Shown in pieces: positions 1 to 45,220 of a stretch of DNA of 45,220 bases. Numbering within the stretch: the first letter of the stretch is position 1; each line of letters begins with the position of its first letter. The stretch lies in the IMG/VR virus record IMGVR_UViG_3300010354_000006. One strand, 5' to 3'. The DNA comes from a virus. The position numbers were made by a program, and so were the translations under genes. The notes beneath the pieces were generated by a model, which was given only the letters and a program-made list of their open reading frames with translations, made no database searches and had not been told where the DNA came from.

Positions 1-123
1 AATTAAAAACAGTGCAATTAATTATTAATTTTGTCGTAGTAATAGCTATCCTAGCTGTAGCCGTAACAGTTGGGAGGTACTTGGGATGAGAGAATTAGAC
101 CGCCAAAAATGGCTTCCAGTGGA
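1..123. repeat. Terminal direct repeat; identical copy at 45098-45220, so unit genome is about 45,097 bp
   Basis: First 123 nt of the window are identical to the last 123 nt (read directly). Confidence 0.9.
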
Positions 124-2498: not shown

Positions 2499-3215
2499 AT
2501 GAAAGCAGCAGACATAGAAATAGTAATCACAAAACAAGCAGGTTCAGGTGACCTTTATGAAGGTTATCTTTTTTACAAAAAAATAGCCTTGCAGTCAGTT
2601 AAAGGCGAAAAAATAACTTTTGAAGATAAGCAGTCTAAAAAGCCTTCAACTTTTATTAATTTATTCATGGAAGGTAAACCCGTAGAAATAGAGGATTATA
2701 CTAACAGTAAAGGCGAAAAAGGGCAGCGACCTAAGCCAGATATTCAGCTTTGGGCTACAGTTTTTCAAAGTGGTTCAGTGCAGGTTAGAGGTGATTTTAT
2801 TTCTGATTTTGGTTTATTCTACCAAGTGGAAGGATACTTTTCACCTGAAAGAGAAAGTTTTACCGTAAGAGAAAGAATTTATGATAAAAAAAATGAGTAC
2901 GACAATAAAGCTCAATTCAATTTCATTGAAAAATATGCGGAGATAATAACAGATATTCCAGAAGTTGAATATTCTGAGGAAGATTTAGCTTTGTCTGTTG
3001 AGCTTTTCCCTGATGCAGCAGATTTTTACGAAAAATATGCAAGCATTAAGAAAGTTGCTGTCAAAGATTTAGTTAATGCTAATGCTCCTAGATTAATGCC
3101 TGGTGCAGCTAAAAAGAAAGCTCCTGTTACTCAAGGGCAGATTGATTTAGCTAAAGATAATTTAACTAAAGTTAAGGCTAAAAGAGTAGTAGAGACAGAG
3201 GAGATACCATTTTAA
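2499..3215 (+). CDS. Putative single-stranded DNA-binding protein (divergent)
   Basis: C-terminal acidic tail ending EEIPF is the SSB tail motif; position directly after ERF; OB fold not verifiable by eye. Confidence 0.4.
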   Translation: MKAADIEIVITKQAGSGDLYEGYLFYKKIALQSVKGEKITFEDKQSKKPSTFINLFMEGKPVEIEDYTNSKGEKGQRPKPDIQLWATVFQSGSVQVRGDFISDFGLFYQVEGYFSPERESFTVRERIYDKKNEYDNKAQFNFIEKYAEIITDIPEVEYSEEDLALSVELFPDAADFYEKYASIKKVAVKDLVNANAPRLMPGAAKKKAPVTQGQIDLAKDNLTKVKAKRVVETEEIPF

Positions 3216-12772: not shown

Positions 12773-13555
12773 ATGTCTTATAATAAGAACATGAGTTTAT
12801 CTAACCTGTTAGACAAGATAAAAAAAATCCCAGTTCTTAAGAAAAACGAAGAAGAAGAGTTGGCTTCTTGGTTTAATTCCAATGAATTAGCAAGACCAAT
12901 TTATGAAAAGATTTTAATTTATCATAACTTAAGATTGGCTAGGCATATTGCAAATAGATTTATAGACAGGGGTTATGAGCTAGAAGATTTAATTTCAGAA
13001 GCTGTTACAGGTTTAAAGCGTGCTGCTGAAAAGTTTAATCCAAAACTAGGCTATAGATTTAGCACTTACGCTGGGCAATGGATTAACCAACGAATCCAAA
13101 AGTTTATTCAAACTTCTTCAACGATTAAAATTCCCGTATTGAAATATTACGCAATTCAAGAGCTGCATAGCCTACTTAATGTTGAACCACTAGAGACTAT
13201 TAGAGAAAAATTAAAGCTTTCAAAAAATCAATTTAATAAATTATACCAAGCCTACTCAAGCCAATTAGTTGAGTCTATAGATGTACCTTTGAATGACCAT
13301 GAATTAATTAAAGAAAGTATCCCTTTTGCCTCAAAAGAATATGATGATCTTTCGGAAAATTTAGAATACTTCTTATCTCAAATCCCCAAAGATGAATACC
13401 CTATAGTCCTAAGTTATCTAAATCAAGAGTTTACTAAAAATAAACTATGCGAAATTTATAACTTAACCTTTATTGAATTAAATCAAATACTGAACCGCAA
13501 TGTAACCTTCTTAAAAGAATCTTTGCGAGGGGATTACGAAGCCTTAAGACTTTGA
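12773..13555 (+). CDS. Sigma-70 family RNA polymerase sigma factor
   Basis: Region 2 signature ...AAEKFNPKLGYRFSTYAGQWINQRIQKFI... (FSTYA.WWI.Q consensus) and a C-terminal helix-turn-helix-like segment. Confidence 0.75.
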   Translation: MSYNKNMSLSNLLDKIKKIPVLKKNEEEELASWFNSNELARPIYEKILIYHNLRLARHIANRFIDRGYELEDLISEAVTGLKRAAEKFNPKLGYRFSTYAGQWINQRIQKFIQTSSTIKIPVLKYYAIQELHSLLNVEPLETIREKLKLSKNQFNKLYQAYSSQLVESIDVPLNDHELIKESIPFASKEYDDLSENLEYFLSQIPKDEYPIVLSYLNQEFTKNKLCEIYNLTFIELNQILNRNVTFLKESLRGDYEALRL

Positions 13556-33759: not shown

Positions 33760-35349
33760 TTAATAATGCAAAAATTTGCGTTTAGGCTTTGAACTTCGAG
33801 TAATAGTATTATTTTTTAACAAAGGAAATACATTGATAAAAGCATATCCGAGAGCATCCATTAAGTGTTCATAAAACCCATCTTTCTTTGGCTCTTCTTT
33901 AATATGATAAGCCCCCTCTTTTGGCATATCATAAACCCAGCCTGTTTCAAAAGTTTCAACGAATAACCCGTTTCGCTCATCTCCATTTTTAGAAATAAAC
34001 ATTCCCCCCGCAGGATTAACGATGACTCCCATAGCATCACCAATTCTACGAGACATTTTATTTCGTATTGCTATAGCTCTATCTGATGGAGCAGATTTTA
34101 TCCCATGAACTTTACGTTTAAAAAACTTTTCTAATATCTTAAATGCAGGCGGTGCAGTACCTTGACTGTTAGCTGATTTTCCTGCTGGGTCTGCATGTAA
34201 AATATATTCGGCATTGGGGAAATGTTTAGCAATATATTCAGCAATTAAAGCCATGAAATTTTCTAACTCCATATCTTCTGCTAAAATCCCATCATGCAAA
34301 ATGCAGCGATTTAAAGAATCCTTCTGCAAAAATACAACTGCTGGATAATGTGAACCAAAGTCAATTCCGATATGTAAAGGTAAATCTTCATCAAATGGAC
34401 AATCTTTATACGGCTCGCAATGAATTTCTCTAGAAAATTCGGGGATTACAGGTTTGCCAACTGGAACGGTAAACTTAAGTTCGTATTCTTGATCCCAAGT
34501 ATATGTATCTACTCCTGATGCTCCAGGAATTGGCTCACCGTTAGGATAAGCTCCATATCGTTCAGCGTGATACCATTCATCGCTACGTTTAAACGGATTA
34601 GCGGTATAATGAAGCTGTAATACAGTTTGGTTATATTCATTGCGATATTTAGCTAAACCAGTCATTAACTTTTCAATTTGTGAATTTTTAGCAATTTTAG
34701 TTACCAACTCTTGGAATTTAGTACCAAAACGTGGAGTTGATACTAAAGCTGCTCTTCCTCCCCCCTCTAAAGCAGGCTTTAAAGCCTTTAAGTTTTGATC
34801 TACGTTTTGTTGAAAAGCTAACTCATCATAAAAAGCATTAGTAATTGTTAGACCTCTGCATTTATCTGAACCTGATGGCAATGCTGTAATTGTTGAACCG
34901 ATTACAGGATTTCGCATTTCGGAGACTCTAATCTCTTTCCCTTCGGTTAATTTAGGATAAGGGAAGCGAAAATCTAACTTATCATATACCGCTTTACATC
35001 TTGTAGCGATAACCTTTTTAGCTCGATCTTCATTTATTGAAACAATGACATTTTCAGAATAAGGAACAAATAAAAGCTGATGTACCATTAATGTACTAAA
35101 AATATGCGTTGCCATCATACGCCTTGTTTTATTAACAACAATAACTTTATTTTTAAAATATTCATCAATTAAATGCTTAATATAAGCATAAGGCGGAAAG
35201 CGTTTTAATGGACTGCCTCTATCCGATTCATCAATCGTAAAGACCTGTTCGACCATCCAAAGAAAAGGGTCATTTGCCCATTGAGTCATTTTTAAAGTAA
35301 TAAACTCTGGGGTAAAATCTTCATTAGTGTATAGTCTATCTAAAATCAT
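33760..35349 (-). CDS. terL: Terminase large subunit
   Basis: Deviant Walker A-like VVNKTRRMMAT, Walker B-like NAFYDELAF, nuclease-domain-like HIGIDFG / ILHADPAG; size 529 aa. Confidence 0.7.
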   Translation of the reverse strand: MILDRLYTNEDFTPEFITLKMTQWANDPFLWMVEQVFTIDESDRGSPLKRFPPYAYIKHLIDEYFKNKVIVVNKTRRMMATHIFSTLMVHQLLFVPYSENVIVSINEDRAKKVIATRCKAVYDKLDFRFPYPKLTEGKEIRVSEMRNPVIGSTITALPSGSDKCRGLTITNAFYDELAFQQNVDQNLKALKPALEGGGRAALVSTPRFGTKFQELVTKIAKNSQIEKLMTGLAKYRNEYNQTVLQLHYTANPFKRSDEWYHAERYGAYPNGEPIPGASGVDTYTWDQEYELKFTVPVGKPVIPEFSREIHCEPYKDCPFDEDLPLHIGIDFGSHYPAVVFLQKDSLNRCILHDGILAEDMELENFMALIAEYIAKHFPNAEYILHADPAGKSANSQGTAPPAFKILEKFFKRKVHGIKSAPSDRAIAIRNKMSRRIGDAMGVIVNPAGGMFISKNGDERNGLFVETFETGWVYDMPKEGAYHIKEEPKKDGFYEHLMDALGYAFINVFPLLKNNTITRSSKPKRKFLHY

Positions 35350-36598: not shown

Positions 36599-36817
36599 TT
36601 ACTTTGTTTTATCTTTTTCGTGCAAATGCCTAAGTGCTGTCATTAAAACATAATTTTGCATTTGCATTTCTATTGAAAGTTTATAAACAACTTCTTGTAT
36701 TGTTAATTCTGCTAGATTCGGATTAAATGGAGTATACTCTTCTAACTTCTTGTTTAATTTCTGCAATTCATTAATACAAAAAGGGATTACCCAAGCTTCT
36801 TCATCTTCTTTTCTCAT
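36599..36817 (-). CDS. Hypothetical protein (72 aa)
   Basis: ORF track. Confidence 0.35.
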   Translation of the reverse strand: MRKEDEEAWVIPFCINELQKLNKKLEEYTPFNPNLAELTIQEVVYKLSIEMQMQNYVLMTALRHLHEKDKTK

Positions 36818-37020
36818 TCTTTCTCCTCCAATTCCTCTACCTTCTCCAATAACCTCTTAAGCAAATACTCCCAAGTAACACCCTTAGTCTTGCCAAGCTT
36901 CGTTATCAGCTCTTCTGAAAATTCCCTGCTTATAGAAATTAAATACTTTTCTTGCTTAGGTTTCACTTTTAATCCCCTCTTGTTCATAAATACTAAAAGA
37001 GTAAGACTCACCAGACTCAA
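36814..37020 (-). CDS. Small hypothetical protein; likely start at internal Met (MNKRGLKV...)
   Basis: ORF track; overlaps next ORF. Confidence 0.3.
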   Translation of the reverse strand: MSLVSLTLLVFMNKRGLKVKPKQEKYLISISREFSEELITKLGKTKGVTWEYLLKRLLEKVEELEEKE

Positions 37021-37291
37021 AGCTAGAAGCTTTTAAAAACATTGGCTCATTGTAATACGGTGAACTAGGACGGATACGCTGGTCTATAAAAGTGGGGTTG
37101 CCGTCTTCTACACCAATAAACTTTAAATCCTCATACTCCATATACAACCCTTTACTAATAGGGTTATCAATTCGCACTATATACAATGCACCAATTTTAA
37201 GGTCATCTAGCTTCTTGATTCTTGCTAGATCAAATTCATTCACCATCTTCCACTGCCTTTTTGAAATTACGACCAAATACTCTGGCAACAT
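36956..37291 (-). CDS. Hypothetical protein (111 aa or shorter)
   Basis: ORF track; region has several overlapping frames. Confidence 0.3.
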   Translation of the reverse strand: MLPEYLVVISKRQWKMVNEFDLARIKKLDDLKIGALYIVRIDNPISKGLYMEYEDLKFIGVEDGNPTFIDQRIRPSSPYYNEPMFLKASSFESGESYSFSIYEQEGIKSET

Positions 37292-37466
37292 TATTTAAAT
37301 TGATTAATTCCTCAAATGCCCCAAGGTCTTCTCTAACTACAACCCAAGAAGGTGGGATTATGCCTACTACTTCCGTCCAATCAGTAGCGAAACTGGAATC
37401 AAACTGAAACCTATAACTACTACCAACAGTAAAAGTATCTGTTAAATTTCTTTCCATAATCAACAA
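37236..37466 (-). CDS. Hypothetical protein; track start is TTG, likelier ATG at 37455-37457
   Basis: ORF track; first gene of minus-strand block. Confidence 0.3.
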   Translation of the reverse strand: MLIMERNLTDTFTVGSSYRFQFDSSFATDWTEVVGIIPPSWVVVREDLGAFEELINLNNVARVFGRNFKKAVEDGE

Positions 37467-38195
37467 TATACCACGATATATAAAAATATACCACTGTTAA
37501 TTTAAATATATCTCAGCGGGACTTTATCCTTCTAGCTCTCACTAGCCTGCATTGAAAACTCTAGTCTTTCGGTTTAATCACATAGATTTTTATGTGGTTA
37601 GTTATTGCTTGTTTAAATCGGTTTAAATCAATTTCTTTTTATTCTTGGGATGATTATGGCTTTAATAAGGTTTTCTTTTAACCTGTGGCAGAATAAAGGG
37701 GTTTTGTGAAGTTTTCTAGTTGGTTGTTAGGTTGGTTTATTACATTGCTGAAATTTGAAATTTTTTATGTGTAGCGAGAGGGGATGCAGTGATAATTTAA
37801 AGGGGTGGCATGGGGTAAAGGATGTTACCCGTAAATACTTTTCTGCTTTTATTACTCTAGAATTACCCTTATACAGTGCCATATTCAAGATAACATTATA
37901 TTATCTTAAGTAAGAACGTGATTGTAGAGCCATTTCAGTATGTTGTTAAAGATAATATACAGAAATTAAGGGGTAGCTACCGAGTATTGGGGGGTATCTT
38001 ATAGTGATTAATGATTGATGACTGATGATCTCTCTCTTATATATTCTTTATCGCTTGCATGTGTTACCCTGCTCGACACATTAACATCATTTCTCATTCT
38101 AAACAAAAACGAGAAACGAATAAAACTCATTCTCAGAAAGCAACTATTCAATTTTACCTACCTACTAGTAGGTAAAAGTTATACCTAACAATTAA

Positions 38196-38288
38196 GCCTA
38201 AAGTGGACTATAGGGTTTAATTAATATAAAGTCTAAAGTGGACTATAGGGTTACAGTAGTAATAAAGCCTATAGTGGACTATAGGGTT
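38196..38288. repeat. Three direct copies of a 22-bp motif GYCTAWAGTGGACTATAGGGTT (38196-38217, 38231-38252, 38267-38288)
   Basis: Read directly; 35-36 bp periodicity; adjacent 12-bp palindrome CCTACTAGTAGG at 38161-38172. Confidence 0.85.
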
Positions 38289-38516
38289 ATAAAGGCTTTC
38301 TAATCAACATTCCTTACTTATCGGCGTAACGATTAAAAACAAGCGAGGCTAGTATTAGTATCTTTTTGTTGTTTTACTTATGACATAAGACAATAGAACA
38401 TTAAATATATTTAATATATCACACCATAACTATATAATCCCTTGAAACCTAGTCCAGTAGTGCATTTCAAGGATTTATAAGTTATTTGATTGATAAAAAA
38501 ATATTTAATAAAAGTG

Positions 38517-38544
38517 TTGCTTTCTTATGACATTATGGTATAAT
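38517..38544 (+). promoter_or_regulatory. Sigma70-like early promoter: -35 TTGCTT (38517-38522), 16-bp spacer, extended -10 TGGTATAAT (38536-38544)
   Basis: Hexamers read directly; ATG at 38551 is 6 nt after -10, implying a leaderless transcript. Confidence 0.5.
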
Positions 38545-38550
38545 AGAAGT

Positions 38551-38739
38551 ATGGAAAGAAAACAAATTGTTAGTCAAGAGTTTAGTCTAAGATTCATAGG
38601 CTTTAAAAACATAGTAGAAGCTAACTTAGCTATGTTTACTCAGTATCCAGATACTGATACTGGATACAATTTGTTGCACTCGTGCAACAAAAAAAACAAT
38701 ATAGAGCCATGTGAAGATGGCTTTATTTTTTATTGTTAA
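38551..38739 (+). CDS. Small early protein (62 aa), possibly leaderless
   Basis: In-frame ATG inside track ORF 38527..38739, positioned at predicted transcription start. Confidence 0.35.
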   Translation: MERKQIVSQEFSLRFIGFKNIVEANLAMFTQYPDTDTGYNLLHSCNKKNNIEPCEDGFIFYC

Positions 38740-38748
38740 TTAGACCAA

Positions 38749-38778
38749 GACCTAAGCAAGTCTTTAAACTGCTTAAGG
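38749..38778 (+). promoter_or_regulatory. Intercistronic element A copy 1 (imperfect palindrome overlapping RBS)
   Basis: GACCTAAGCAAGTCTTTAAACTGCTTAAGG; TAAGCA / TGCTTA inverted repeat. Confidence 0.6.
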
Positions 38779-38786
38779 AAAAAGAA

Positions 38787-38942
38787 ATGAAAAACAATCA
38801 ACTAATAGAAAAATACAATATCACAGCTAAGGATATAGCAGTAATCGAGGATCATCTTCATTATGGTTATGGTTACGAGTATTTAGAAGCTAGGTTCAGT
38901 TTCTCTGAGTTAGAGGTAATTCTAGACACTTGGAGCATTTAA
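38787..38942 (+). CDS. Small early protein (51 aa)
   Basis: ATG at 38787 after AAGGAAAAAG RBS; track ORF began at TTG 38733. Confidence 0.35.
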   Translation: MKNNQLIEKYNITAKDIAVIEDHLHYGYGYEYLEARFSFSELEVILDTWSI

Positions 38943-38952
38943 TTATTAGGAT

Positions 38953-38982
38953 GACCTGAGCAAGTCTTTAAACTGCTTAAGG
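38953..38982 (+). promoter_or_regulatory. Intercistronic element A copy 2
   Basis: GACCTGAGCAAGTCTTTAAACTGCTTAAGG. Confidence 0.6.
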
Positions 38983-38991
38983 AGTAAAGAA

Positions 38992-39225
38992 ATGAAAAAA
39001 TTTGACCACTTAAAAAACATTAAAAGCCTGCTAAACCAGCAGTTGAAAAAGCATGGGTTAAAACTACCTGTGCATGCTGAGCTGAAAGACATGGCTATTT
39101 TGTCTGATATCTTAGCAGGTAGGATTACAGAAATAGACTTAGCTTTTGCGATAGCAAAGATAGAGTCAAGAGCTGATAAGGCTTGTATAGCAGCTAGCAA
39201 AGTAACAGAAAGGGAGAGTAAGTAA
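38992..39225 (+). CDS. Hypothetical early protein (77 aa)
   Basis: ORF track. Confidence 0.4.
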   Translation: MKKFDHLKNIKSLLNQQLKKHGLKLPVHAELKDMAILSDILAGRITEIDLAFAIAKIESRADKACIAASKVTERESK

Positions 39226-39477
39226 ATGACGATATATTACGCAATAAGCCGAGACATTAAAGAAGCTCAAACAGGGCTTAATAGAATAAGTCACTTAGAT
39301 GATTATTCAGGAACTCCAGAAGAGAAATTAAACGATTTAATCGATGACCACTTAAACTACGTGAATGTATGGAGTGGCAGTTTAGATTTTGCTTACAGCA
39401 GTACAAGTAAGTTTCCTGAATCGGAAAGGTATATTTTAATAACTGAGACTGACACTGGCTTAAAAAGAATTCAATAA
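39226..39477 (+). CDS. Hypothetical early protein (83 aa)
   Basis: ORF track; ATG follows upstream stop. Confidence 0.4.
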   Translation: MTIYYAISRDIKEAQTGLNRISHLDDYSGTPEEKLNDLIDDHLNYVNVWSGSLDFAYSSTSKFPESERYILITETDTGLKRIQ

Positions 39478-39483
39478 ACCAAA

Positions 39484-39512
39484 GACCTAGCAAGTCTTAA
39501 AACTGCTTCAGG
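39484..39512 (+). promoter_or_regulatory. Intercistronic element A copy 3
   Basis: GACCTAGCAAGTCTTAAAACTGCTTCAGG. Confidence 0.55.
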
Positions 39513-39522
39513 AGATAAAAAA

Positions 39523-39936
39523 ATGACAATTAAAATACAAATCGATAAAAAAATATTAGAAGCTGATAGCTTGGCGGTATTAGCTTATAGTGTCGAGAAG
39601 GAAATTAACAAAATACTAGAAATTAAAGAAAGTAGTTACCTTGCAACTCTCTCAATTAAAAGCATGTTACAGGGCTTGCAAGTCTATTCTAATTATCATA
39701 AAAATCTTTCAGCTGATGATTATGAACATTATTGTAGCAATGGTACTTTTAAATTAAACCTACACGAGGAATTAGATGACCCAAAATTAGATTTTCCTCT
39801 GGTGGTCTCACGTTCCATAGATTTATGGCTACAAGGTACTAATGAACCTAAGTTAATAGTCTCTTTCAGAAATGACAATAACCAGCTAGTCATAGATGAT
39901 GAGAACTTGAATAAACTAGATTCATACTTTGCTTAA
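39523..39936 (+). CDS. Hypothetical early protein (137 aa)
   Basis: ORF track. Confidence 0.45.
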   Translation: MTIKIQIDKKILEADSLAVLAYSVEKEINKILEIKESSYLATLSIKSMLQGLQVYSNYHKNLSADDYEHYCSNGTFKLNLHEELDDPKLDFPLVVSRSIDLWLQGTNEPKLIVSFRNDNNQLVIDDENLNKLDSYFA

Positions 39937-40003
39937 AACTATCAGCTAACCGATTCTACACCATCTCAACGGCATGGTGTAGAACTGGTAAGCACCAGTT
40001 AAA
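39937..40003 (+). ncRNA. Intercistronic element B copy 1: conserved leader, 11-bp stem hairpin (39954-39964 / 39974-39984), second short hairpin, then RBS
   Basis: TTCTACACCAT / ATGGTGTAGAA perfect stem; ACTGGT-AAGC-ACCAGT second hairpin. Confidence 0.55.
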
Positions 40004-40023
40004 GAAAAAAGGAAAATAAAAAA

Positions 40024-40707
40024 ATGAATAACTACATAGGTGTCTTAATAAAAAGAAAAAATGGCATATTGACTAATGCTACTTGCTTAGGAATAAGAGA
40101 GTTAATTAAGAACAATAGCCATAACTCGGTATGGTTACAAGCAAATGGTAAATGTTCTTACGGACACTATGCTAAAAAGCATACTGATGGTTATCTATAT
40201 AGCCATGAAGAGTATACGGATAATTGGGATGGTGCAGTATATTCAACAACATTAAAATATTATCCTACCAGTAAACCAGTTCAAATGACAAAATGGCAAC
40301 TAGAAAGAGATCAGATTGAAAAGAAAGAAGATTTACTAGAATCAGCTAAGATATTTTTACGTAACTTGAGCAAAGAATTAATAGAAATAGAAAAATTCAA
40401 TCAGCTAGTATCTGAAGGAATTAAGCAAGATAAAAAAATAACGGGTAGTGAATTAGTATTTTTAGCTGATTACTACAAGGTAGATATTCCCATTAGAACT
40501 CGTGGTTATTATTTAAATAAATTACACAGGGTAACAGCTACTGAGATTAAAGATAAAGAAGTTTCAAGGATTAGTTACCTTGCTGAAGGTAAATTAAATA
40601 GAGATATTCTTTATAGAACATTAGATTTGATCATAAATGAAATGTATCCAGAAGAGGTTACAGTAAAAGAGCAAGAAACTTTCAATCGATTATTTAAAGT
40701 TGCATAG
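40024..40707 (+). CDS. Hypothetical early protein (227 aa)
   Basis: ORF track. Confidence 0.5.
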   Translation: MNNYIGVLIKRKNGILTNATCLGIRELIKNNSHNSVWLQANGKCSYGHYAKKHTDGYLYSHEEYTDNWDGAVYSTTLKYYPTSKPVQMTKWQLERDQIEKKEDLLESAKIFLRNLSKELIEIEKFNQLVSEGIKQDKKITGSELVFLADYYKVDIPIRTRGYYLNKLHRVTATEIKDKEVSRISYLAEGKLNRDILYRTLDLIINEMYPEEVTVKEQETFNRLFKVA

Positions 40708-40776
40708 AACTATCATCAAGCTAACCGCTTCTAGCATATCTAATAGCATATGCTGGAACTGGTTATCACCAGATAA
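40708..40776 (+). ncRNA. Intercistronic element B copy 2: same architecture, stem 40729-40739 / 40748-40758 with compensatory changes
   Basis: TTCTAGCATAT / ATATGCTGGAA (one G-U wobble); CTGGT-TATC-ACCAG. Confidence 0.55.
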
Positions 40777-40791
40777 AGGAAAAAGGAAAAA

Positions 40792-41199
40792 ATGAAAATG
40801 ATTAAAATTAATTATGAAATAGATATAGATTTAATAGTTTCTTTTTTAAAAAGAGCTACACACAGTAGGAATAAGTCTAAAAAAAATAATTCTATAGAAT
40901 TAACTATAGAAGACTGCCATGAAATAAGTGAGCTACTTCACGATTTTACTCCAAAGAGAATCTTCTCTCAAACCAATAGCGAATGTGAATTAATAGATAC
41001 TATGTTCGCTAAAGAAGTCTTAAGAAAACTTCCATTTTTAGCTAAGTGTGAAGGATTTGAGATGGAAAACGGGCTTTTAAGTTCTCTTTCCTATAATTTA
41101 TTTCAGTTTTTAGCTGGAAATTTTGTTTTAGGTGAAACATCTCGTTTAGAATCTGTCAAAACAAAAGCCAATAATAGTTTTTTAGAATTTATTAAATAA
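40792..41199 (+). CDS. Hypothetical early protein (135 aa)
   Basis: ORF track. Confidence 0.45.
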   Translation: MKMIKINYEIDIDLIVSFLKRATHSRNKSKKNNSIELTIEDCHEISELLHDFTPKRIFSQTNSECELIDTMFAKEVLRKLPFLAKCEGFEMENGLLSSLSYNLFQFLAGNFVLGETSRLESVKTKANNSFLEFIK

Positions 41200-41215
41200 A
41201 AGGAAAAATAAACAA

Positions 41216-41536
41216 ATGACAACAATGGAACACACAATAAAAACAACAATAGAAACTATCGAAGGCGTAAGCGATTACAGCTTATTCGCAGTGGACGAAG
41301 CAATTGACTCGCTGGAATTCCAAAAAAGATTAAGTTATGGCTATGCCAAAAATAAACTTAATTTTGAAATAGATTTAATTAATTACTTTAAAAGTCATCC
41401 AAATTTCAACAATATGTGGAACTGTTATAGCTTTGATGAGGAGGACAGCGAAGAGCCAATTAACGTAGAATTTGAATTTGAATTTGAGCTGGAAGATTTA
41501 CCGCAACACTTGCAAGATGGTTACGAAAGTTTTTAG
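41216..41536 (+). CDS. Small highly acidic protein (106 aa) with EFEFEFELED tract
   Basis: Composition read directly. Confidence 0.45.
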   Translation: MTTMEHTIKTTIETIEGVSDYSLFAVDEAIDSLEFQKRLSYGYAKNKLNFEIDLINYFKSHPNFNNMWNCYSFDEEDSEEPINVEFEFEFELEDLPQHLQDGYESF

Positions 41537-41605
41537 AACTATCATCAAGCTAACCGATTCTAGCACTTACTAATCCAAGTGCTGGAACTGGTTATCACCA
41601 GATAT
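41537..41605 (+). ncRNA. Intercistronic element B copy 3: stem 41558-41568 / 41577-41587 with compensatory changes
   Basis: TTCTAGCACTT / AAGTGCTGGAA (one G-U wobble); CTGGT-TATC-ACCAG. Confidence 0.55.
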
Positions 41606-41618
41606 AGGAAAAAAACAA

Positions 41619-41756
41619 ATGACAATATTCAAAACACAACACGATTTAATGAATGATGAGTATTACTTAGAGATACTGGGAATTAGAGTATCCAATGCGA
41701 TAGCTAATTTCTTGGTTAGATTAGGAGTTATTCAAGAGAACGAAAATATTTAGAGC
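41619..41756 (+). CDS. Small hypothetical protein (45 aa), below the ORF-track cutoff
   Basis: ATG directly after element B copy 3. Confidence 0.25.
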
Positions 41757-41790
41757 GAGGATTCAGGAAAAGAAAAAAGGAAATTTAATT

Positions 41791-42054
41791 ATGGTATACA
41801 AAATAGACGAAAAAGAAAACTGTAAAGTTAGAGAAGTTTCTGAATATTTAAGTCGTAAGGGTTACGACAAGGGAATTAACCCTAAATTTAAAGTAGGGGA
41901 TGTTATCCAGTTCCTAACTGGTTATGATTATAACATTCTCGCTGAAGCCAAGATTAAGGGTATAAACGGAAATGATTTATATGTTTACAATGATGCTTAT
42001 TGGTTCGCGATTCAGGACAATGAGCAAAGGAAAATAAAAATCATTCAAGCTTAA
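41791..42054 (+). CDS. Hypothetical early protein (87 aa)
   Basis: ORF track; AAAGGAAA RBS. Confidence 0.4.
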   Translation: MVYKIDEKENCKVREVSEYLSRKGYDKGINPKFKVGDVIQFLTGYDYNILAEAKIKGINGNDLYVYNDAYWFAIQDNEQRKIKIIQA

Positions 42055-42057
42055 ACC

Positions 42058-42147
42058 CAGCCAAAATTTTTAATTTCAGTTGCCTGTATTATAAAGGCAA
42101 CTGGTTCTGATGGTAAAACAAATGACAACAGCCAAAATTTTTAATTT
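42058..42147. repeat. 19-bp perfect direct repeat CAGCCAAAATTTTTAATTT (42058-42076 and 42129-42147) with an 8-bp stem hairpin between (42077-42084 / 42096-42103)
   Basis: Read directly. Confidence 0.8.
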
Positions 42148-42293
42148 TGGAATAAAGTTTTAATTCCCTCGAATAAGGGGGAATTAAAAGCAGTCAAGTA
42201 ATCCTTGACAGCTCAACTATTCGAGATTATCGAATACTTGGATAATCAAGCCTAGAGCTACTATCATTAGGTTGAGTAATCTAGAGTAAATAG

Positions 42294-42577
42294 TTTTCCG
42301 TCTTTTCCGTCATATCTTTTTACTTTCCGTCAAAATGACGAAAGCTATAATACAAGCCTAGTCCGCCTATCCAGTCTTTTCCGTCTTTTCCGTCATTTCC
42401 GTAATGAATAAGTGAAGTTATAAATAATAATATATATATACATATTGATTAATTATTTCATTTATTTATTTTTCTAGACGAAAATGACGAAATGACGGAA
42501 AAACTCTCGATAAGTATACCTAGTCTATATTATAGAGTCCGTCAAACTATGACGGAAAACACTCAAATGACGGAAAA
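42294..42577. promoter_or_regulatory. Putative origin of replication: TTTTCCGTC iterons (42294-42302, 42303-42311, 42323-42331, 42377-42385, 42386-42394), AT-rich core (42411-42476), inverted GACGGAAAA iterons (42494-42502, 42551-42559, 42569-42577)
   Basis: Read directly; lies in an 800-bp ORF-free region upstream of the helicase gene. Confidence 0.6.
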
Positions 42578-42727
42578 CTAGAAACAGATGAGCAAGCTAG
42601 TCAAATATCCTGCAAGCTCGACAGAGCAGCTCGTAAGAGCGGGGGTATTTAAGTTGCGGCTCAACATAAAAACAAATTAAACTAATTACTAAGTTACTTG
42701 TTAGATAAATCTGATATATATATAAGT

Positions 42728-42853
42728 ATGAAGAAATCGGGATTAAATATCCACCTGGAAACAATAGAAAAGCTGAAAGAGTTTAAACCAAGTGGTGTAA
42801 CTTGGGATTATTTTTTATTGGAGTTGCTGAAAGCTTGGGTAGCTAAAGGTTAA
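42728..42853 (+). CDS. Small ORF (41 aa), possible ribbon-helix-helix-like regulator between origin and helicase
   Basis: ATG to TAA read directly; no clear RBS. Confidence 0.25.
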   Translation: MKKSGLNIHLETIEKLKEFKPSGVTWDYFLLELLKAWVAKG

Positions 42854-42857
42854 TCGA

Positions 42858-44600
42858 ATGAAAAATGAACAAGCTTTATTGGGTGCTATTCTTCAGCACG
42901 CAGAATGTAAGTATTTAATCTATGAATTAAAAGCTGATTATTTTTCAAATGACGATAATCGCAAAGTCTTTTTAGCTATGCTGGCATTGCATAATGCTAA
43001 TGAACCTATAGAAATATTCACAGTTAAAAGCAAGGTAGAAGAACTAAATTATTCTGATCTGCTTGGATACATTGAACTATTAAGAGACGTAGCAGATATT
43101 CCATCTAATGTTAGATTCACTCTTAAAAGAATTTTCAAGGCATATAAAGCTAAAGAAGAAAAAAGAATTAAAAGCGAAATAAAATTTCACCAAGATGATT
43201 TACCCAAAGTTCAATCCTTAATTCAAGAGTTTAATGAGCTTAACAAATTAATCGCATTAGACGAAATTAAATTACTCGGTAAAAACAAGGAATCCCAAGC
43301 TCAATTTTGTTTGCAGGATATACTGCCATCACCATTATATGCCTATCTATATGGCATTTCCTCAGTTCCATACAAAGACTTCCCAGTAGAAGCAGCATTC
43401 AGTTTATTTCTTTCCATAGTGGGCAGTCTAGCGGGTACTAAATTCACTATTTCACACCGAAGACACAAAGAACATGCTTTTTGGTGGTCTATGGTGGGTT
43501 TACCCGTAGGATCAGGCAAAACACCTATCTTAAATAACCTAATGAAGCCCTTAACAGTCTTGCAGTACGAAGCTTTAGAAGTTTATAAACAGCAGCTTAA
43601 AGAATTTCAAGAAGTTAAAAAGAAAAAGAAAAAAGATACTTCTCTTGAGGAATTTCAAGAGGAATTACCAGAACCTAAAAGAAAAAGATTTTATTTATCT
43701 GATTCAACAATGGAGACTACATTGAAAGCTCACTCAGATAACCCTAATGGGCTTTTATGGGTCAAGGATGAGCTTAAAGGTCTCTTTAATTCTCTTGGTG
43801 CTTATAAGGGTGGACGGGGAGAAGATAAAGAAACATTACTGTCACTAGGTGCAGGTACTTTTATTTCAGTAGCTAGAAAAGAAACAGATATTGAACTCGT
43901 CAAATCGGCTATTAGCCTCACTGGTGGGATTCAACCTCAAGTATTAAAAGATTTATATTCCAAAGATGGAGATAAAGATAACGGCTTATGGCAGAGATTC
44001 GCCTATATTATCCACGAAACAGTATCAAGAGAAAAAAACCCAGACGATGTAGTCTTAAATGATTCGATATTAACTAAGCTCTATTCCCATATTATTAGCT
44101 CAGAGGGTGCTAGCTTAGTCTTTGCTGATTATGATTATGTCGAATGGGTATCAGATTATTTTAATGAAGAGATAGATAAAGCTCCAACACCAGCAATGCA
44201 AGCATATTACACTAAATGCTTTGGGTTTTTCTTAAGGCTTTCTATTTTGTTGCATATTCTTGATTCGCACTTCTCTTATCTGTCTTACGATAGACCAGTT
44301 AGCAGAACTACCAGCGAAAATGCTTTTTCCTTAATTGTGGCTTACATTTCCCATGCTGAAAAACTATTTTATGTTAAAACCATCAAAAGCAAAGATCAAC
44401 AATTTATCAATAAAATTCTTGATAAGCCTTTAGCTAAAAGAACAATTAATGAAATCGCTAAAACTATTACTCAACGTGTTGATAAACCTTCTGATTATGC
44501 CCGCTATCTATTTGAGCTTATGCAAGAAGCAGGCTTAGGTACTATCAACAAAACCAACGGCAAAAACTGGCAATTCGCTTTAAAGGGAGAAACAATATGA
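42858..44600 (+). CDS. Replicative helicase / replication initiator with DnaB-like N-terminal domain and Walker A P-loop
   Basis: N-terminus NEQALLGAILQHAE...FSNDDNRKVFLAML...EPIEIFTV matches DnaB N-terminal pattern; P-loop VGLPVGSGKTPIL. Confidence 0.55.
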   Translation: MKNEQALLGAILQHAECKYLIYELKADYFSNDDNRKVFLAMLALHNANEPIEIFTVKSKVEELNYSDLLGYIELLRDVADIPSNVRFTLKRIFKAYKAKEEKRIKSEIKFHQDDLPKVQSLIQEFNELNKLIALDEIKLLGKNKESQAQFCLQDILPSPLYAYLYGISSVPYKDFPVEAAFSLFLSIVGSLAGTKFTISHRRHKEHAFWWSMVGLPVGSGKTPILNNLMKPLTVLQYEALEVYKQQLKEFQEVKKKKKKDTSLEEFQEELPEPKRKRFYLSDSTMETTLKAHSDNPNGLLWVKDELKGLFNSLGAYKGGRGEDKETLLSLGAGTFISVARKETDIELVKSAISLTGGIQPQVLKDLYSKDGDKDNGLWQRFAYIIHETVSREKNPDDVVLNDSILTKLYSHIISSEGASLVFADYDYVEWVSDYFNEEIDKAPTPAMQAYYTKCFGFFLRLSILLHILDSHFSYLSYDRPVSRTTSENAFSLIVAYISHAEKLFYVKTIKSKDQQFINKILDKPLAKRTINEIAKTITQRVDKPSDYARYLFELMQEAGLGTINKTNGKNWQFALKGETI

Positions 44601-45081: not shown

Positions 45082-45186
45082 ATGAACGAACTAGAAGAAT
45101 TAAAAACAGTGCAATTAATTATTAATTTTGTCGTAGTAATAGCTATCCTAGCTGTAGCCGTAACAGTTGGGAGGTACTTGGGATGA
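45082..45186 (+). CDS. Small membrane peptide (34 aa, single predicted TM helix); stop overlaps ATG of the 65-aa ORF (equivalent to 86..283)
   Basis: AAGGAAAAG RBS; hydrophobic core IINFVVVIAILAVAVTV. Confidence 0.3.
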   Translation: MNELEELKTVQLIINFVVVIAILAVAVTVGRYLG

Positions 45187-45220
45187 GAGAATTAGACCGC
45201 CAAAAATGGCTTCCAGTGGA
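45098..45220. repeat. Second copy of the 123-bp terminal direct repeat
   Basis: Exact match to 1-123. Confidence 0.9.

Follow-up and report, generated by a model that had tools for sequence, protein, structure and literature searches.

In the early region of phage T7, irregular, sequence-related hairpins (R0.3 to R1.3) lie between the cistrons of a polycistronic transcript made by the host RNA polymerase and serve as RNase III sites, and the first early genes (0.3, encoding Ocr, and 0.7) have host-interaction functions. In lambdoid phages, short conserved gene-boundary sequences have been proposed to channel homologous recombination, and morons, which carry their own promoter and terminator, are inserted as units. 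We know of no report that the lambdoid boundary sequences are structured RNAs or are shared across phyla. A further system is formed by the promoter-early stem-loop (PeSL) cassettes of T4-type phages (Arbiol et al. 2010, PMC2839356; Comeau et al. 2014, PMC4122927), in which each PeSL combines a consensus sigma-70 promoter with a G/C-rich stem-loop terminator and which are specific to T4-like myoviruses. Here we describe a locus in the virus record IMGVR_UViG_3300010354_000006 of IMG/VR (45,220 nucleotides, hereafter the window), where ten small open reading frames (ORFs; o1 to o10) on the plus strand at positions 38551-42054 are punctuated by two repeated elements, the pseudoknot-forming motif A and the hairpin-forming element B.

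This locus resembles the PeSL system in several ways. Its repeated intergenic motifs occupy a hyperplastic region, extend from the stop codon of one ORFan (orphan ORF) to the Shine-Dalgarno (SD) sequence and start codon of the next, include a stem-loop, and recombine such that ORFan cassettes are shuffled between close relatives. In contrast to PeSLs, A and B lack promoter hexamers, their structures are a 27-nucleotide pseudoknot and a 17-bp hairpin, the carrier is an unrelated 45-kb phage, and A is common to several phyla at the nucleotide level. With lambdoid boundary sequences and morons the locus shares short conserved sequences at gene boundaries and accessory genes that behave as units. 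The explanation that we lean towards, with somewhat better than even confidence, is a hyperplastic early operon in which one promoter would serve exchangeable ORFan cassettes, and in which structured-RNA spacers would act both as expression boundaries and as recombination linkers.

An earlier note on this DNA had described the cluster as an array without recognisable motifs, lying between a divergent control region and the replication origin and punctuated by two repeat families. The coordinates of its ten ORFs (44-227 amino acids) are confirmed, and both repeat families are genuine. Each has three copies, all on the plus strand and, within the window, only in this region; shuffling predicts 0.03 copies of A against the three observed, and 0.09 copies of B against the three to four observed. 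The note had treated the repeats as cassette-like punctuation. Homology breakpoints within them do mark cassettes, but the repeats are more than punctuation; they proved to be the best-supported and most novel feature of the locus.

Motif A is about 27 nucleotides long (consensus GACCUAAGCAAGUCnnnAAACUGCUU), and its copies in the window directly precede the ribosome-binding sites of o2, o3 and o5. Two short stems, S1 and S2, are interleaved in the order S1a-S2a-S1b-S2b, and because both covary we assign the motif to the H-type pseudoknots. In a metagenome scan for copies with a mutated U13, in which neither position 2 nor position 20 was fixed, a compensating base stands at position 2 in 93 of 96 contexts (U-A 87, C-G 5, G-C 1), whereas position 20 stays A. 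The pair 2-13 of S1 was recorded as AU 70 times, UA 25 times, CG nine times and GC once. A targeted scan of S2 found that position 24 compensates in 28 of the 29 matches with a mutated G8 (A-U 16, U-A 12), and double changes in this stem occur at the pairs 6-26, 8-24 and 9-23. A covariance-model search of 100 loci also returned two copies with double changes at 1/14 and 2/13. Pooled pairing reaches 99.1% in S1 and 87.8% in S2, and none of 500 shuffles matched these values. A simple bulged hairpin is rejected, given that changes at U13 are compensated at position 2 and not at position 20. The samples were ascertained with patterns that fix other positions, and conservation outside the tested positions is therefore overstated. 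The 5' GAC, which the core-pattern scan left unspecified, is invariant in 122 of 122 among the matches listed, and U26, which was likewise not fixed, is T in 85% of contexts.

Element B begins directly after a stop codon with the conserved 5' box AACUAUCAYCAAGCUAACCG, which runs into an irregular hairpin of 17 bp. The full layout is the stop codon, AACUAUCAYCAAGCUAACCGCUnC, a variable stem, GGAACUGGUUAUCACCAG or a second subtype ACAAUGGCUAGC, and an A-rich ribosome-binding site. RNAfold predicts a single long hairpin composed of an outer UAACCG/UGGUUA stem and an inner 11-bp stem, with energies of -21 to -26 kcal/mol. Across 11 copies from six phages, 93.8% of the alignment cells are paired and nine of the 17 pairs carry compensatory changes; none of 500 shuffles did as well, and slid controls gave only 17-44% pairing. 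This element is confined to the present phage family. The covariation in both elements shows that A and B are base-paired structures under selection.

B lies between cistrons of what is probably a polycistronic RNA, and its interrupted helix (6 + 11 bp with a 1x1 interruption) is shorter than classical RNase III substrates. It shares intercistronic placement and an interrupted helix with the RNase III sites of T7, whereas the T7 helices are longer and have larger internal loops. Cleavage of B is thus a prediction by analogy. Truncated copies of B (AACUAUCAUCAAAC followed by an SD) are present in related phages, and the B-type spacers of the contigs L137 (5266-5347) and L012 (1457-1530) contain a fossil of the start of a neighbouring gene (ATGGCTAGCACGCCATTAA, 'MASTPL*'). 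Both the truncated copies and these remnants look like recombination scars, the remnants from an event in which the rest of the neighbouring gene was replaced. (L-numbers are contig labels; homologues of the helicase led to the related contigs.)

Several substitutions in motif A indicate the strand on which it operates. C9 is replaced only by U (94 of 94 substitutions), and its partner G23 is retained in 87 of these 94, giving a G.U pair that only this strand tolerates. Any base is tolerated at the junction position N11, and there are no matches from which it is deleted. The one-sided change at C9, together with flanking ORFs that are co-oriented with the motif (79:2 upstream, 84:4 downstream), shows that motif A acts on the gene-sense strand, as RNA, with single-stranded DNA of the same strand as a formal alternative.

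Such G.U-only tolerance and an obligatory but unspecified junction base are signatures of RNA structure, and they count against a reading modelled on PeSLs. According to this reading, each copy of A or B would supply its own promoter for a host or phage sigma factor together with a stem-loop attenuator, and the cassettes would be independent transcription units. The location directly upstream of ORFans and the recombination at the elements are as described for PeSLs (PMC2839356, PMC4122927). A terminator often precedes A (18% against 8% in the control), which is where the promoter of a moron would sit, the phage encodes a sigma-70-family factor, and the GenBank annotation of Staphylococcus phage B166 places a BPROM-predicted promoter over the motif. 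Yet a consensus scan found no -35/-10 pair in any copy of A or B, and the conserved nucleotides of A belong to two covarying stems rather than to hexamers. Moreover, A occurs between tRNA genes and in phyla with very different promoter types. We therefore regard cassettes with individual promoters as improbable.

Other identities for motif A were considered and set aside. As a sigma-70, sigma-54 or T7-type promoter it fails because its conserved bases are engaged in pairing and no hexamers recur at a constant distance. Protein coding is rejected as well: although the variable triplet shares its reading frame with o2, a stop codon interrupts that frame in copy 2, and A is also found between tRNA genes. 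The likeness to a boxA/nut-like site rests on the variable triplet. A CRISPR repeat or tracrRNA mimic, a CIRCE-like operator, a dif/attP core and an anticodon-stem-loop mimic share only partial strings with A, and each fails on spacing or at variable positions. Integron attC sites were rejected for both elements, as RYYYAAC/GTTRRRY cores are present in neither and there is no integrase among the annotated genes, an annotation that is not exhaustive. A protein partner encoded beside A was rejected too, because no family is common to all contexts.

Motif A is not restricted to the relatives of the window. The census stands at more than 440 distinct contexts, which is a lower bound, and the core-pattern scan of viral contigs alone gave at least 120 matches with unrelated flanks. 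By chance, about 0.07 matches to the 22 specified bases would be expected in 596 Gb. The phages that carry A come from at least eight bacterial phyla, including Bacillota, Bacteroidota, Cyanobacteriota, Patescibacteria, Pseudomonadota and Campylobacterota. Among isolates, these are Moraxella phages Mcat1, 2, 4 and 5, Acaryochloris phage A-HIS1, Microcystis phage Ma-LMM01 and MaMV phages, Planktothrix phage PaV-LD, Staphylococcus phietaviruses and Lactobacillus phage Lj965, and there are also phage-plasmids of Clostridium and Apilactobacillus that carry the motif. It is present in 34 stretches of bacterial genomes (Bacillota, Bacteroidota, Patescibacteria, Pseudomonadota, Campylobacterota, Actinomycetota and Cloacimonadota), and prophages with it span at least seven phyla. 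There is no near-perfect copy in 5,426 complete E. coli genomes. Two sequence sub-lineages can be told apart, GUCC...GAC (87 contexts) and GCCC...GGC (five contexts).

No Rfam covariance model matches positions 37000-43000 at E<=1, and at E<=10 there are only chance matches over 38690-39010. Searches of the literature for the sequence of motif A likewise returned only chance matches in unrelated papers. Thus, A appears to be an undescribed phage RNA motif that crosses phyla and is without an Rfam match. Among described RNAs, its architecture is reminiscent of minimal H-type pseudoknots such as the preQ1-I riboswitch aptamer (about 34 nucleotides), the luteovirus frameshift pseudoknots and the leader pseudoknot of T4/T2 gene 32. 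All are about 27-34 nucleotides long with two short stems, a one-nucleotide L1 and junction, and an A-rich L3 that in motif A could lie in the minor groove of S1, and A likewise adjoins a ribosome-binding site in some contexts. In contrast to these RNAs, A has no Rfam match, lies outside any coding frame with a slippery site and is not tied to a single gene family.

The genomic contexts of A have common features. A stop codon on the same strand lies within 40 nucleotides upstream in 385 of 444 contexts. A T-run directly follows the motif in 31% of contexts compared with 5% in the control window, which suggests that some members probably act as terminators; within 35 nucleotides upstream, T-runs occur in 18% against 8%. 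An SD and start codon are found within 60 nucleotides downstream in 31% of contexts. The copies in the window are followed by AAGGA or CAGGAG rather than a U-tract and so do not qualify as intrinsic terminators. A composite in which a terminator precedes motif A recurs in L009, L039, L129, L153 and other contigs.

Within the present phage family A is found only in early arrays. Elsewhere it occurs in Capnocytophaga-type phages, in arrays of small ORFs that follow divergent regulators, as well as between tRNA genes of large phages and inside late operons. In SPP1-like head modules it always marks the junction at which the minor-head (gp7-like) gene is followed by the genes for the scaffold and the major capsid protein; expression must step up there, and a second covarying hairpin often lies ahead of A. 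This position is kept in Staphylococcus and Apilactobacillus phages even though the flanking DNA has diverged. In two phages unrelated to the window, L248 (IMGVR_UViG_3300007177_002990) and L301, each copy of A precedes the SD and start codon of a cassette of about 300 nucleotides, an architecture like that of the window. Tandem units of about 800 nucleotides, each with A, then an SD, then a tiny Cys-rich ORF (MGRRRCICIFD), are present in L162 (5315-6139), a contig from a Nautiliaceae metagenome-assembled genome.

Could A be a repeat of the REP (repetitive extragenic palindromic) or MITE (miniature inverted-repeat transposable element) kind, with A and B spreading as mobile or gene-converted sequences that have no function for the phage? 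Such an origin would fit the multi-copy arrays (at least eight copies of A in L248, 2007-9971, and three about 315 nucleotides apart in L301, 2438-3100), the distinct sub-lineages and the presence at recombination junctions. We saw neither terminal inverted repeats nor target-site duplications, nor a transposase associated with the elements, and no protein family is common to all flanks of A. The strict co-orientation with transcription, the fixed position after stop codons, the conservation of single-stranded positions and the retention of the head-module site amid diverged flanks also speak against neutrality, and we give a selfish repeat little credence.

Another possibility is that A is a riboswitch-like device, binding a universal small molecule or a conserved host factor and gating a terminator or ribosome-binding site at its 3' edge. 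The unpaired nucleotides C4, A18-A20 and C21 are conserved at the nucleotide level across at least eight phyla as the stems covary, and the size and H-type topology are near those of the smallest known aptamers, such as preQ1-I. The two 3' contexts, T-run or SD plus start codon, resemble expression platforms. In the window the SD begins right after S2, and RNAfold predicts that C3C4 can pair with GG instead, at the expense of S1. A classical riboswitch serves a single pathway, whereas the genes downstream of A are a mixture of ORFans, scaffold and capsid genes and tRNAs. In addition, no Rfam riboswitch model matches, S1 comprises only 3 bp, and the data do not allow us to name a ligand candidate. 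A ligand-gated switch is thus an unlikely, though not negligible, account of A.

The reading of A that we consider most likely is that of an RNA-level expression boundary that doubles as a recombination linker. A tentative extension, to which we assign clearly less than even confidence, is that A represents a class of structured RNA that has not been described before. Phages of most bacterial phyla would use it to mark the borders of genes, whether in arrays of small ORFs, in tRNA arrays or where low-copy head genes give way to high-copy ones, and its near-invariant sequence would reflect contact with a partner conserved throughout bacteria. Candidates for this partner are RNA polymerase, a small-molecule ligand and a ribonuclease, for instance an exonuclease working 5'-to-3' or 3'-to-5' to which A would be a roadblock.

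A link between the elements and the turnover of cassettes is apparent from the relatives of the window. Between the divergent control region and the helicase gene, relatives have two to seven small ORFs over 2-3 kb, compared with ten over 3.5 kb in the window, and contigs whose helicases are 96, 93, 89, 83 and 62% identical to that of the window carry different small ORFs at the locus. Phages with 83-96% identical helicases have none of the ten ORFs in common with the window, or o9 alone; even at 93-96% identity only o9 and o11, an additional ORF that resembles ribbon-helix-helix proteins, are common to both. The only one of the ten that is kept in distant relatives is o9. Nowhere else in the genome do close relatives differ as much as in the stretch 38551-42054. 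The repeats are conserved and the ORFs between them differ, and pairwise blocks of DNA homology begin and end inside A or B elements. For example, homology between window positions 39517-40725 and L138, where the gene order is o2-X-o5-o6, begins just past the third copy of A and stops in the 5' box of B. In L203 the order is o6-B-48aa-B-55aa-68aa-o8 compared with o6-B-o7-o8 in the window, such that three other small ORFs replace o7. In L136 and L137, o6 is found without the other window ORFs, and in L136 it has other neighbours. Because the breakpoints fall inside the repeats, we interpret the locus as a hyperplastic cassette array. The same behaviour is evident in other phages: L013, L094, L057 and L106 represent all four pairings of two upstream and two downstream contexts around A, which makes A a recombination junction there as well.

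Mosaicism also reaches whole modules, as judged from L003, L005, L007 and L009, whose helicase and replication modules are similar (62-96% identical helicases) and whose structural modules are unrelated to window positions 8743-37466. In these, L003 has an SU10-type capsid, and L005 has a T7-type head-tail connector and Phage_capsid_2.

The cassette proteins themselves resist annotation. At E<=0.01, searches of Pfam, PHROGs, PADLOC and NCBIfam gave no match for any of the ten, which agrees with the earlier description of an array without recognisable motifs. An AGGA/GGAG-type ribosome-binding site lies 6-10 nucleotides upstream of nine of the ten. The ratio of nonsynonymous to synonymous substitution rates (dN/dS) is 0.05-0.21 for o2, o5, o6 and o9, which indicates that these are real genes. 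The largest, o6, has 12 homologues with 58-91% identity (dN/dS 0.11-0.21); its profile gave no match in a sequence search of PDB, and a structure search yielded only a marginal PH/EVH1-like match. There is no homologue of o1, o3, o4 or o10 in the related contigs examined, and their coding status therefore rests on the ORF and its ribosome-binding site only. The start codon of o1 lies 7 nucleotides past the -10 box of the putative early promoter. The arrangement TATAAT-N6-ATGGAAA is kept in L137, where it heads an unrelated hydrophobic ORF of 63 amino acids. From this spacing and its conservation, o1 is probably translated from a leaderless mRNA.

The note had singled out o8 as a possible DNA mimic like Ocr. 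The protein is indeed acidic, though moderately so, with 24 D+E against 6 K+R, a net charge of -18 over 106 amino acids and an isoelectric point (pI) of 4.1, and like Ocr and ArdA it would be a small, acidic, early-expressed phage protein. It has only two relatives among 1.8 billion representative proteins, and one homologue is 86% identical. Here the resemblance to known mimics ends, as there is no sequence or fold similarity and the charge density is lower. The best phmmer match in PDB (E 0.52) is to an unrelated protein, Foldseek found no fold in PDB at E<1 (best E 1.4), and only one of five AlphaFold2 models was confident (predicted local distance difference test 78.8), with a predicted fold of a beta-hairpin plus helices. 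Composition is the sole basis of the Ocr analogy, which fails in each of these comparisons.

This outcome affects the view of the locus as an anti-defence or host-takeover island, in which the proteins would carry the function, o8 would mimic DNA as Ocr does, and the repeats would be incidental. The promoter-proximal position, the ORFan status, the extreme turnover among close relatives alongside purifying selection on individual genes, and the charge of o8 all suit it. No ORF resembles a known anti-defence or defence family or a PDB chain in the searches made, the structural results for o8 are unhelpful to it, and the repeats are not incidental, since they are under strong structural selection. 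We give this view well below even confidence in the form stated. What it says about the proteins is compatible with the operon model that we favour; it is silent on the repeats. The idea of a counter-defence locus retains its basis in promoter-proximal, hypervariable ORFan cassettes, and it loses the o8 analogy. Genes with accessory, host-interaction or counter-defence roles would be expected to show this combination of variability, ORFan status and cassette organization, which leaves an anti-defence or takeover role plausible.

The hyperplastic operon that we favour might function as follows. A conserved sigma-70-type promoter (38517-38544) would drive one polycistronic transcript of cassettes, in which A and B would set expression boundaries at the RNA level. 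By analogy with the early region of T7, B may be an RNase III-type processing or stability hairpin. Motif A may be a compact pseudoknot that is resistant to nucleases, terminates transcription where a U-tract follows, or binds a factor or ligand. The 25-85 nucleotides of shared sequence at cassette borders would offer homology to the Erf/Gam/RuvC system of the phage for swapping cassettes during co-infection; recombination at short homologies by single-strand annealing proteins is well established. Judging from position and turnover, the cassette proteins most likely have host-interaction functions, whether in anti-defence, takeover or exclusion.

Several observations weigh against this model. 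The promoter, the single operon and its processing are all predictions made from the DNA. At the end of o1, a hairpin and T-run that resemble a terminator would require read-through, antitermination or attenuation, or else an unrecognised downstream promoter. The B helix, at 17 bp with a 1x1 internal loop, is near the lower length limit for RNase III substrates. Motif A is not an 'early' element as such, given that it also lies between tRNA genes and inside late operons, and a passive role as linker does not explain its nucleotide-level conservation across phyla. Finally, four of the ten ORFs (o1, o3, o4 and o10) are without comparative support.

The surroundings are those expected from the earlier note, which had placed the array between an early promoter and an origin. 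The candidate sigma-70-type promoter, with its A/T-rich UP-like tract, -35, TGn and -10, keeps its layout in L003, L005, L007, L009, L012, L136, L137 and L138, and the iteron field that bounds the array on the other side, a candidate replication origin, is also kept in relatives. Iterons of the type TTTTCCGTC are found in phages with helicases at least 83% identical to that of the window, and L005 (9353-9836), with a 62% identical helicase, has TTTTCCGCA instead. This switch alongside helicase divergence suggests that the iterons co-vary with the initiator or helicase. Two more hairpins, neither with a T-run, separate o10 from the iterons (42077-42105 and 42156-42190), and the adjoining ACAGCCAAAATTTTTAATTT (42115-42161) is 96% conserved in L138 and L139. 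The ORF o11 (42698-42853, plus strand), just upstream of the helicase gene, and a 68-amino acid ORF (36814-37020, minus strand) are paralogues with a ...GVTW(D/E)Y(F/L)L..LL motif; they look like ribbon-helix-helix DNA binders that bracket the control and origin regions.

The divergent control region includes three tandem 35-bp repeats (ATAAAGYCTAWAGTGGACTATAGGGTT) at 38191-38296, with similar units in L009 and L007, and these are probably operator sites for a regulator. Non-coding blocks at 37512-37732 and 37768-37913 are 75-95% identical in relatives whose flanks are otherwise different. They are adjoined by a small Cys-rich plus-strand ORF (MCSERGCSDNLKGWHG...) that is also present in L009, and the whole could be a late or minus-strand promoter-leader region plus a small regulator.

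The first 123 bases of the window are identical to its last (1-123 = 45098-45220), which indicates a complete phage genome of about 45.1 kb, with either a circular assembly or a short terminal repeat behind the overlap. The IMG/VR contig 3300010370_000070 is 99.99% identical to the window, neither the window nor the region matches at the DNA level any of 50,697 GenBank phage records, and the helicase and large terminase have only remote matches in isolates. Sample names point to a freshwater or estuarine origin. Plus-strand genes for early and replication functions run from about 38.5 kb through the end of the genome and on to about 8.5 kb; besides the helicase, they include a Gam-like protein, an Erf annealing protein, an HNH nuclease, a RuvC-like resolvase and two lysins. 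Structural genes on the minus strand extend from 37466 down to 8743 and include one for a protein of 1871 amino acids. The sigma-70-family gene among them probably directs late transcription. No tRNA genes were found in the window.

Table 1. Features of the window, internal positions of motif A, and head-module copies of motif A in other contigs
Feature	Position	Strand	Remarks
Motif A copy 1	38749-38774	+	canonical pseudoknot GACCUAAGCAAGUCUUUAAACUGCUU; 49.4 bits; 3' end abuts o2 SD
Motif A copy 2	38953-38978	+	A6 replaced by G, which pairs with U26 as G.U; 44.5 bits
Motif A copy 3	39484-39508	+	one A deleted in 5' strand of S2; 31.7 bits
Motif A, S1	motif positions 1-3 with 12-14		G1A2C3 with G12U13C14
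Motif A, L1	motif position 4		C4
Motif A, S2	motif positions 5-10 with 22-27		U5-A10 with U22-A27
Motif A, L2	motif position 11		N11, one obligatory junction nucleotide, any base
Motif A, L3	motif positions 15-21		NNNAAAC (three variable nucleotides, then AAAC)
Motif A, head module	L298 (Staphylococcus phage 37) 2501-2526		
Motif A, head module	L135 (phage B166) 1501-1528		
Motif A, head module	L299 (Apilactobacillus plasmid) 2501-2530		
Element B copy 1	39937-40023	+	long hairpin 39947-39991; RNAfold -25.8 kcal/mol, z -5.9; covariation
Element B copy 2	40708-40791	+	long hairpin 40722-40765; -20.7 kcal/mol, z -3.6; covariation
Element B copy 3	41537-41618	+	long hairpin 41551-41594; -24.2 kcal/mol, z -5.7; covariation
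o1	38551-38739	+	62 aa; no homologue in related loci
o2	38787-38942	+	51 aa, cassette gene; 80% identical homologue in L138, dN/dS 0.05
o3	38992-39225	+	77 aa, basic (pI 9.6); no homologue in related loci
o4	39226-39477	+	83 aa; start abuts o3 stop; no homologue in related loci
o5	39523-39936	+	137 aa, cassette gene; 80% identical homologue in L138, dN/dS 0.11
o6	40024-40707	+	227 aa; N-terminal beta domain, long helix, C-terminus modelled poorly
o7	40792-41199	+	135 aa, cassette gene; one homologue, 86% identity
o8	41216-41536	+	106 aa, acidic, EFEFEFELED tract
o9	41619-41753	+	44 aa; 71-84% identity in L005/L006 and L007/L008, dN/dS 0.08
o10	41791-42054	+	87 aa; weak PHROG match only (E 0.015, unknown function)
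Putative early promoter P_E	38517-38544	+	TTGCTT -35, 16-nt spacer, TGg-TATAAT extended -10; read from sequence
Intrinsic-terminator-like hairpin with T-run	38701-38735	+	attenuator candidate; end of o1, before first A copy
Iteron field TTTTCCGTC	42294-42580	.	both orientations around AT-rich core; conserved in relatives
DnaB-N/DUF3987 helicase	42858-44600	+	
Large terminase	33760-35349	-	
Sigma-70-family gene	12773-13555	+	amid minus-strand late genes

As a gene island, the locus is a clean case of a hyperplastic early region in a phage, but not an unusual one. It also provides a worked example, outside the T4 group, of how ORFan cassettes move, in which conserved intercistronic elements flank swappable genes in a phage with its own Erf/Gam/RuvC kit. 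With A and B as anchors, cassettes can be retrieved from metagenomes, which offers a guide in the hunt for anti-defence genes. The function of A is directly testable at the bench, because the motif is present in well-studied Staphylococcus phietaviruses, at the junction between the minor-head and scaffold/capsid genes. That a 27-nucleotide pseudoknot is conserved at the nucleotide level across such hosts implies a conserved partner, and this partner, once found, could reveal a general mechanism of phage mRNA control. If A does engage such a partner, it would be a general, portable device by which phages set the boundaries of their mRNAs or sense the state of the host.

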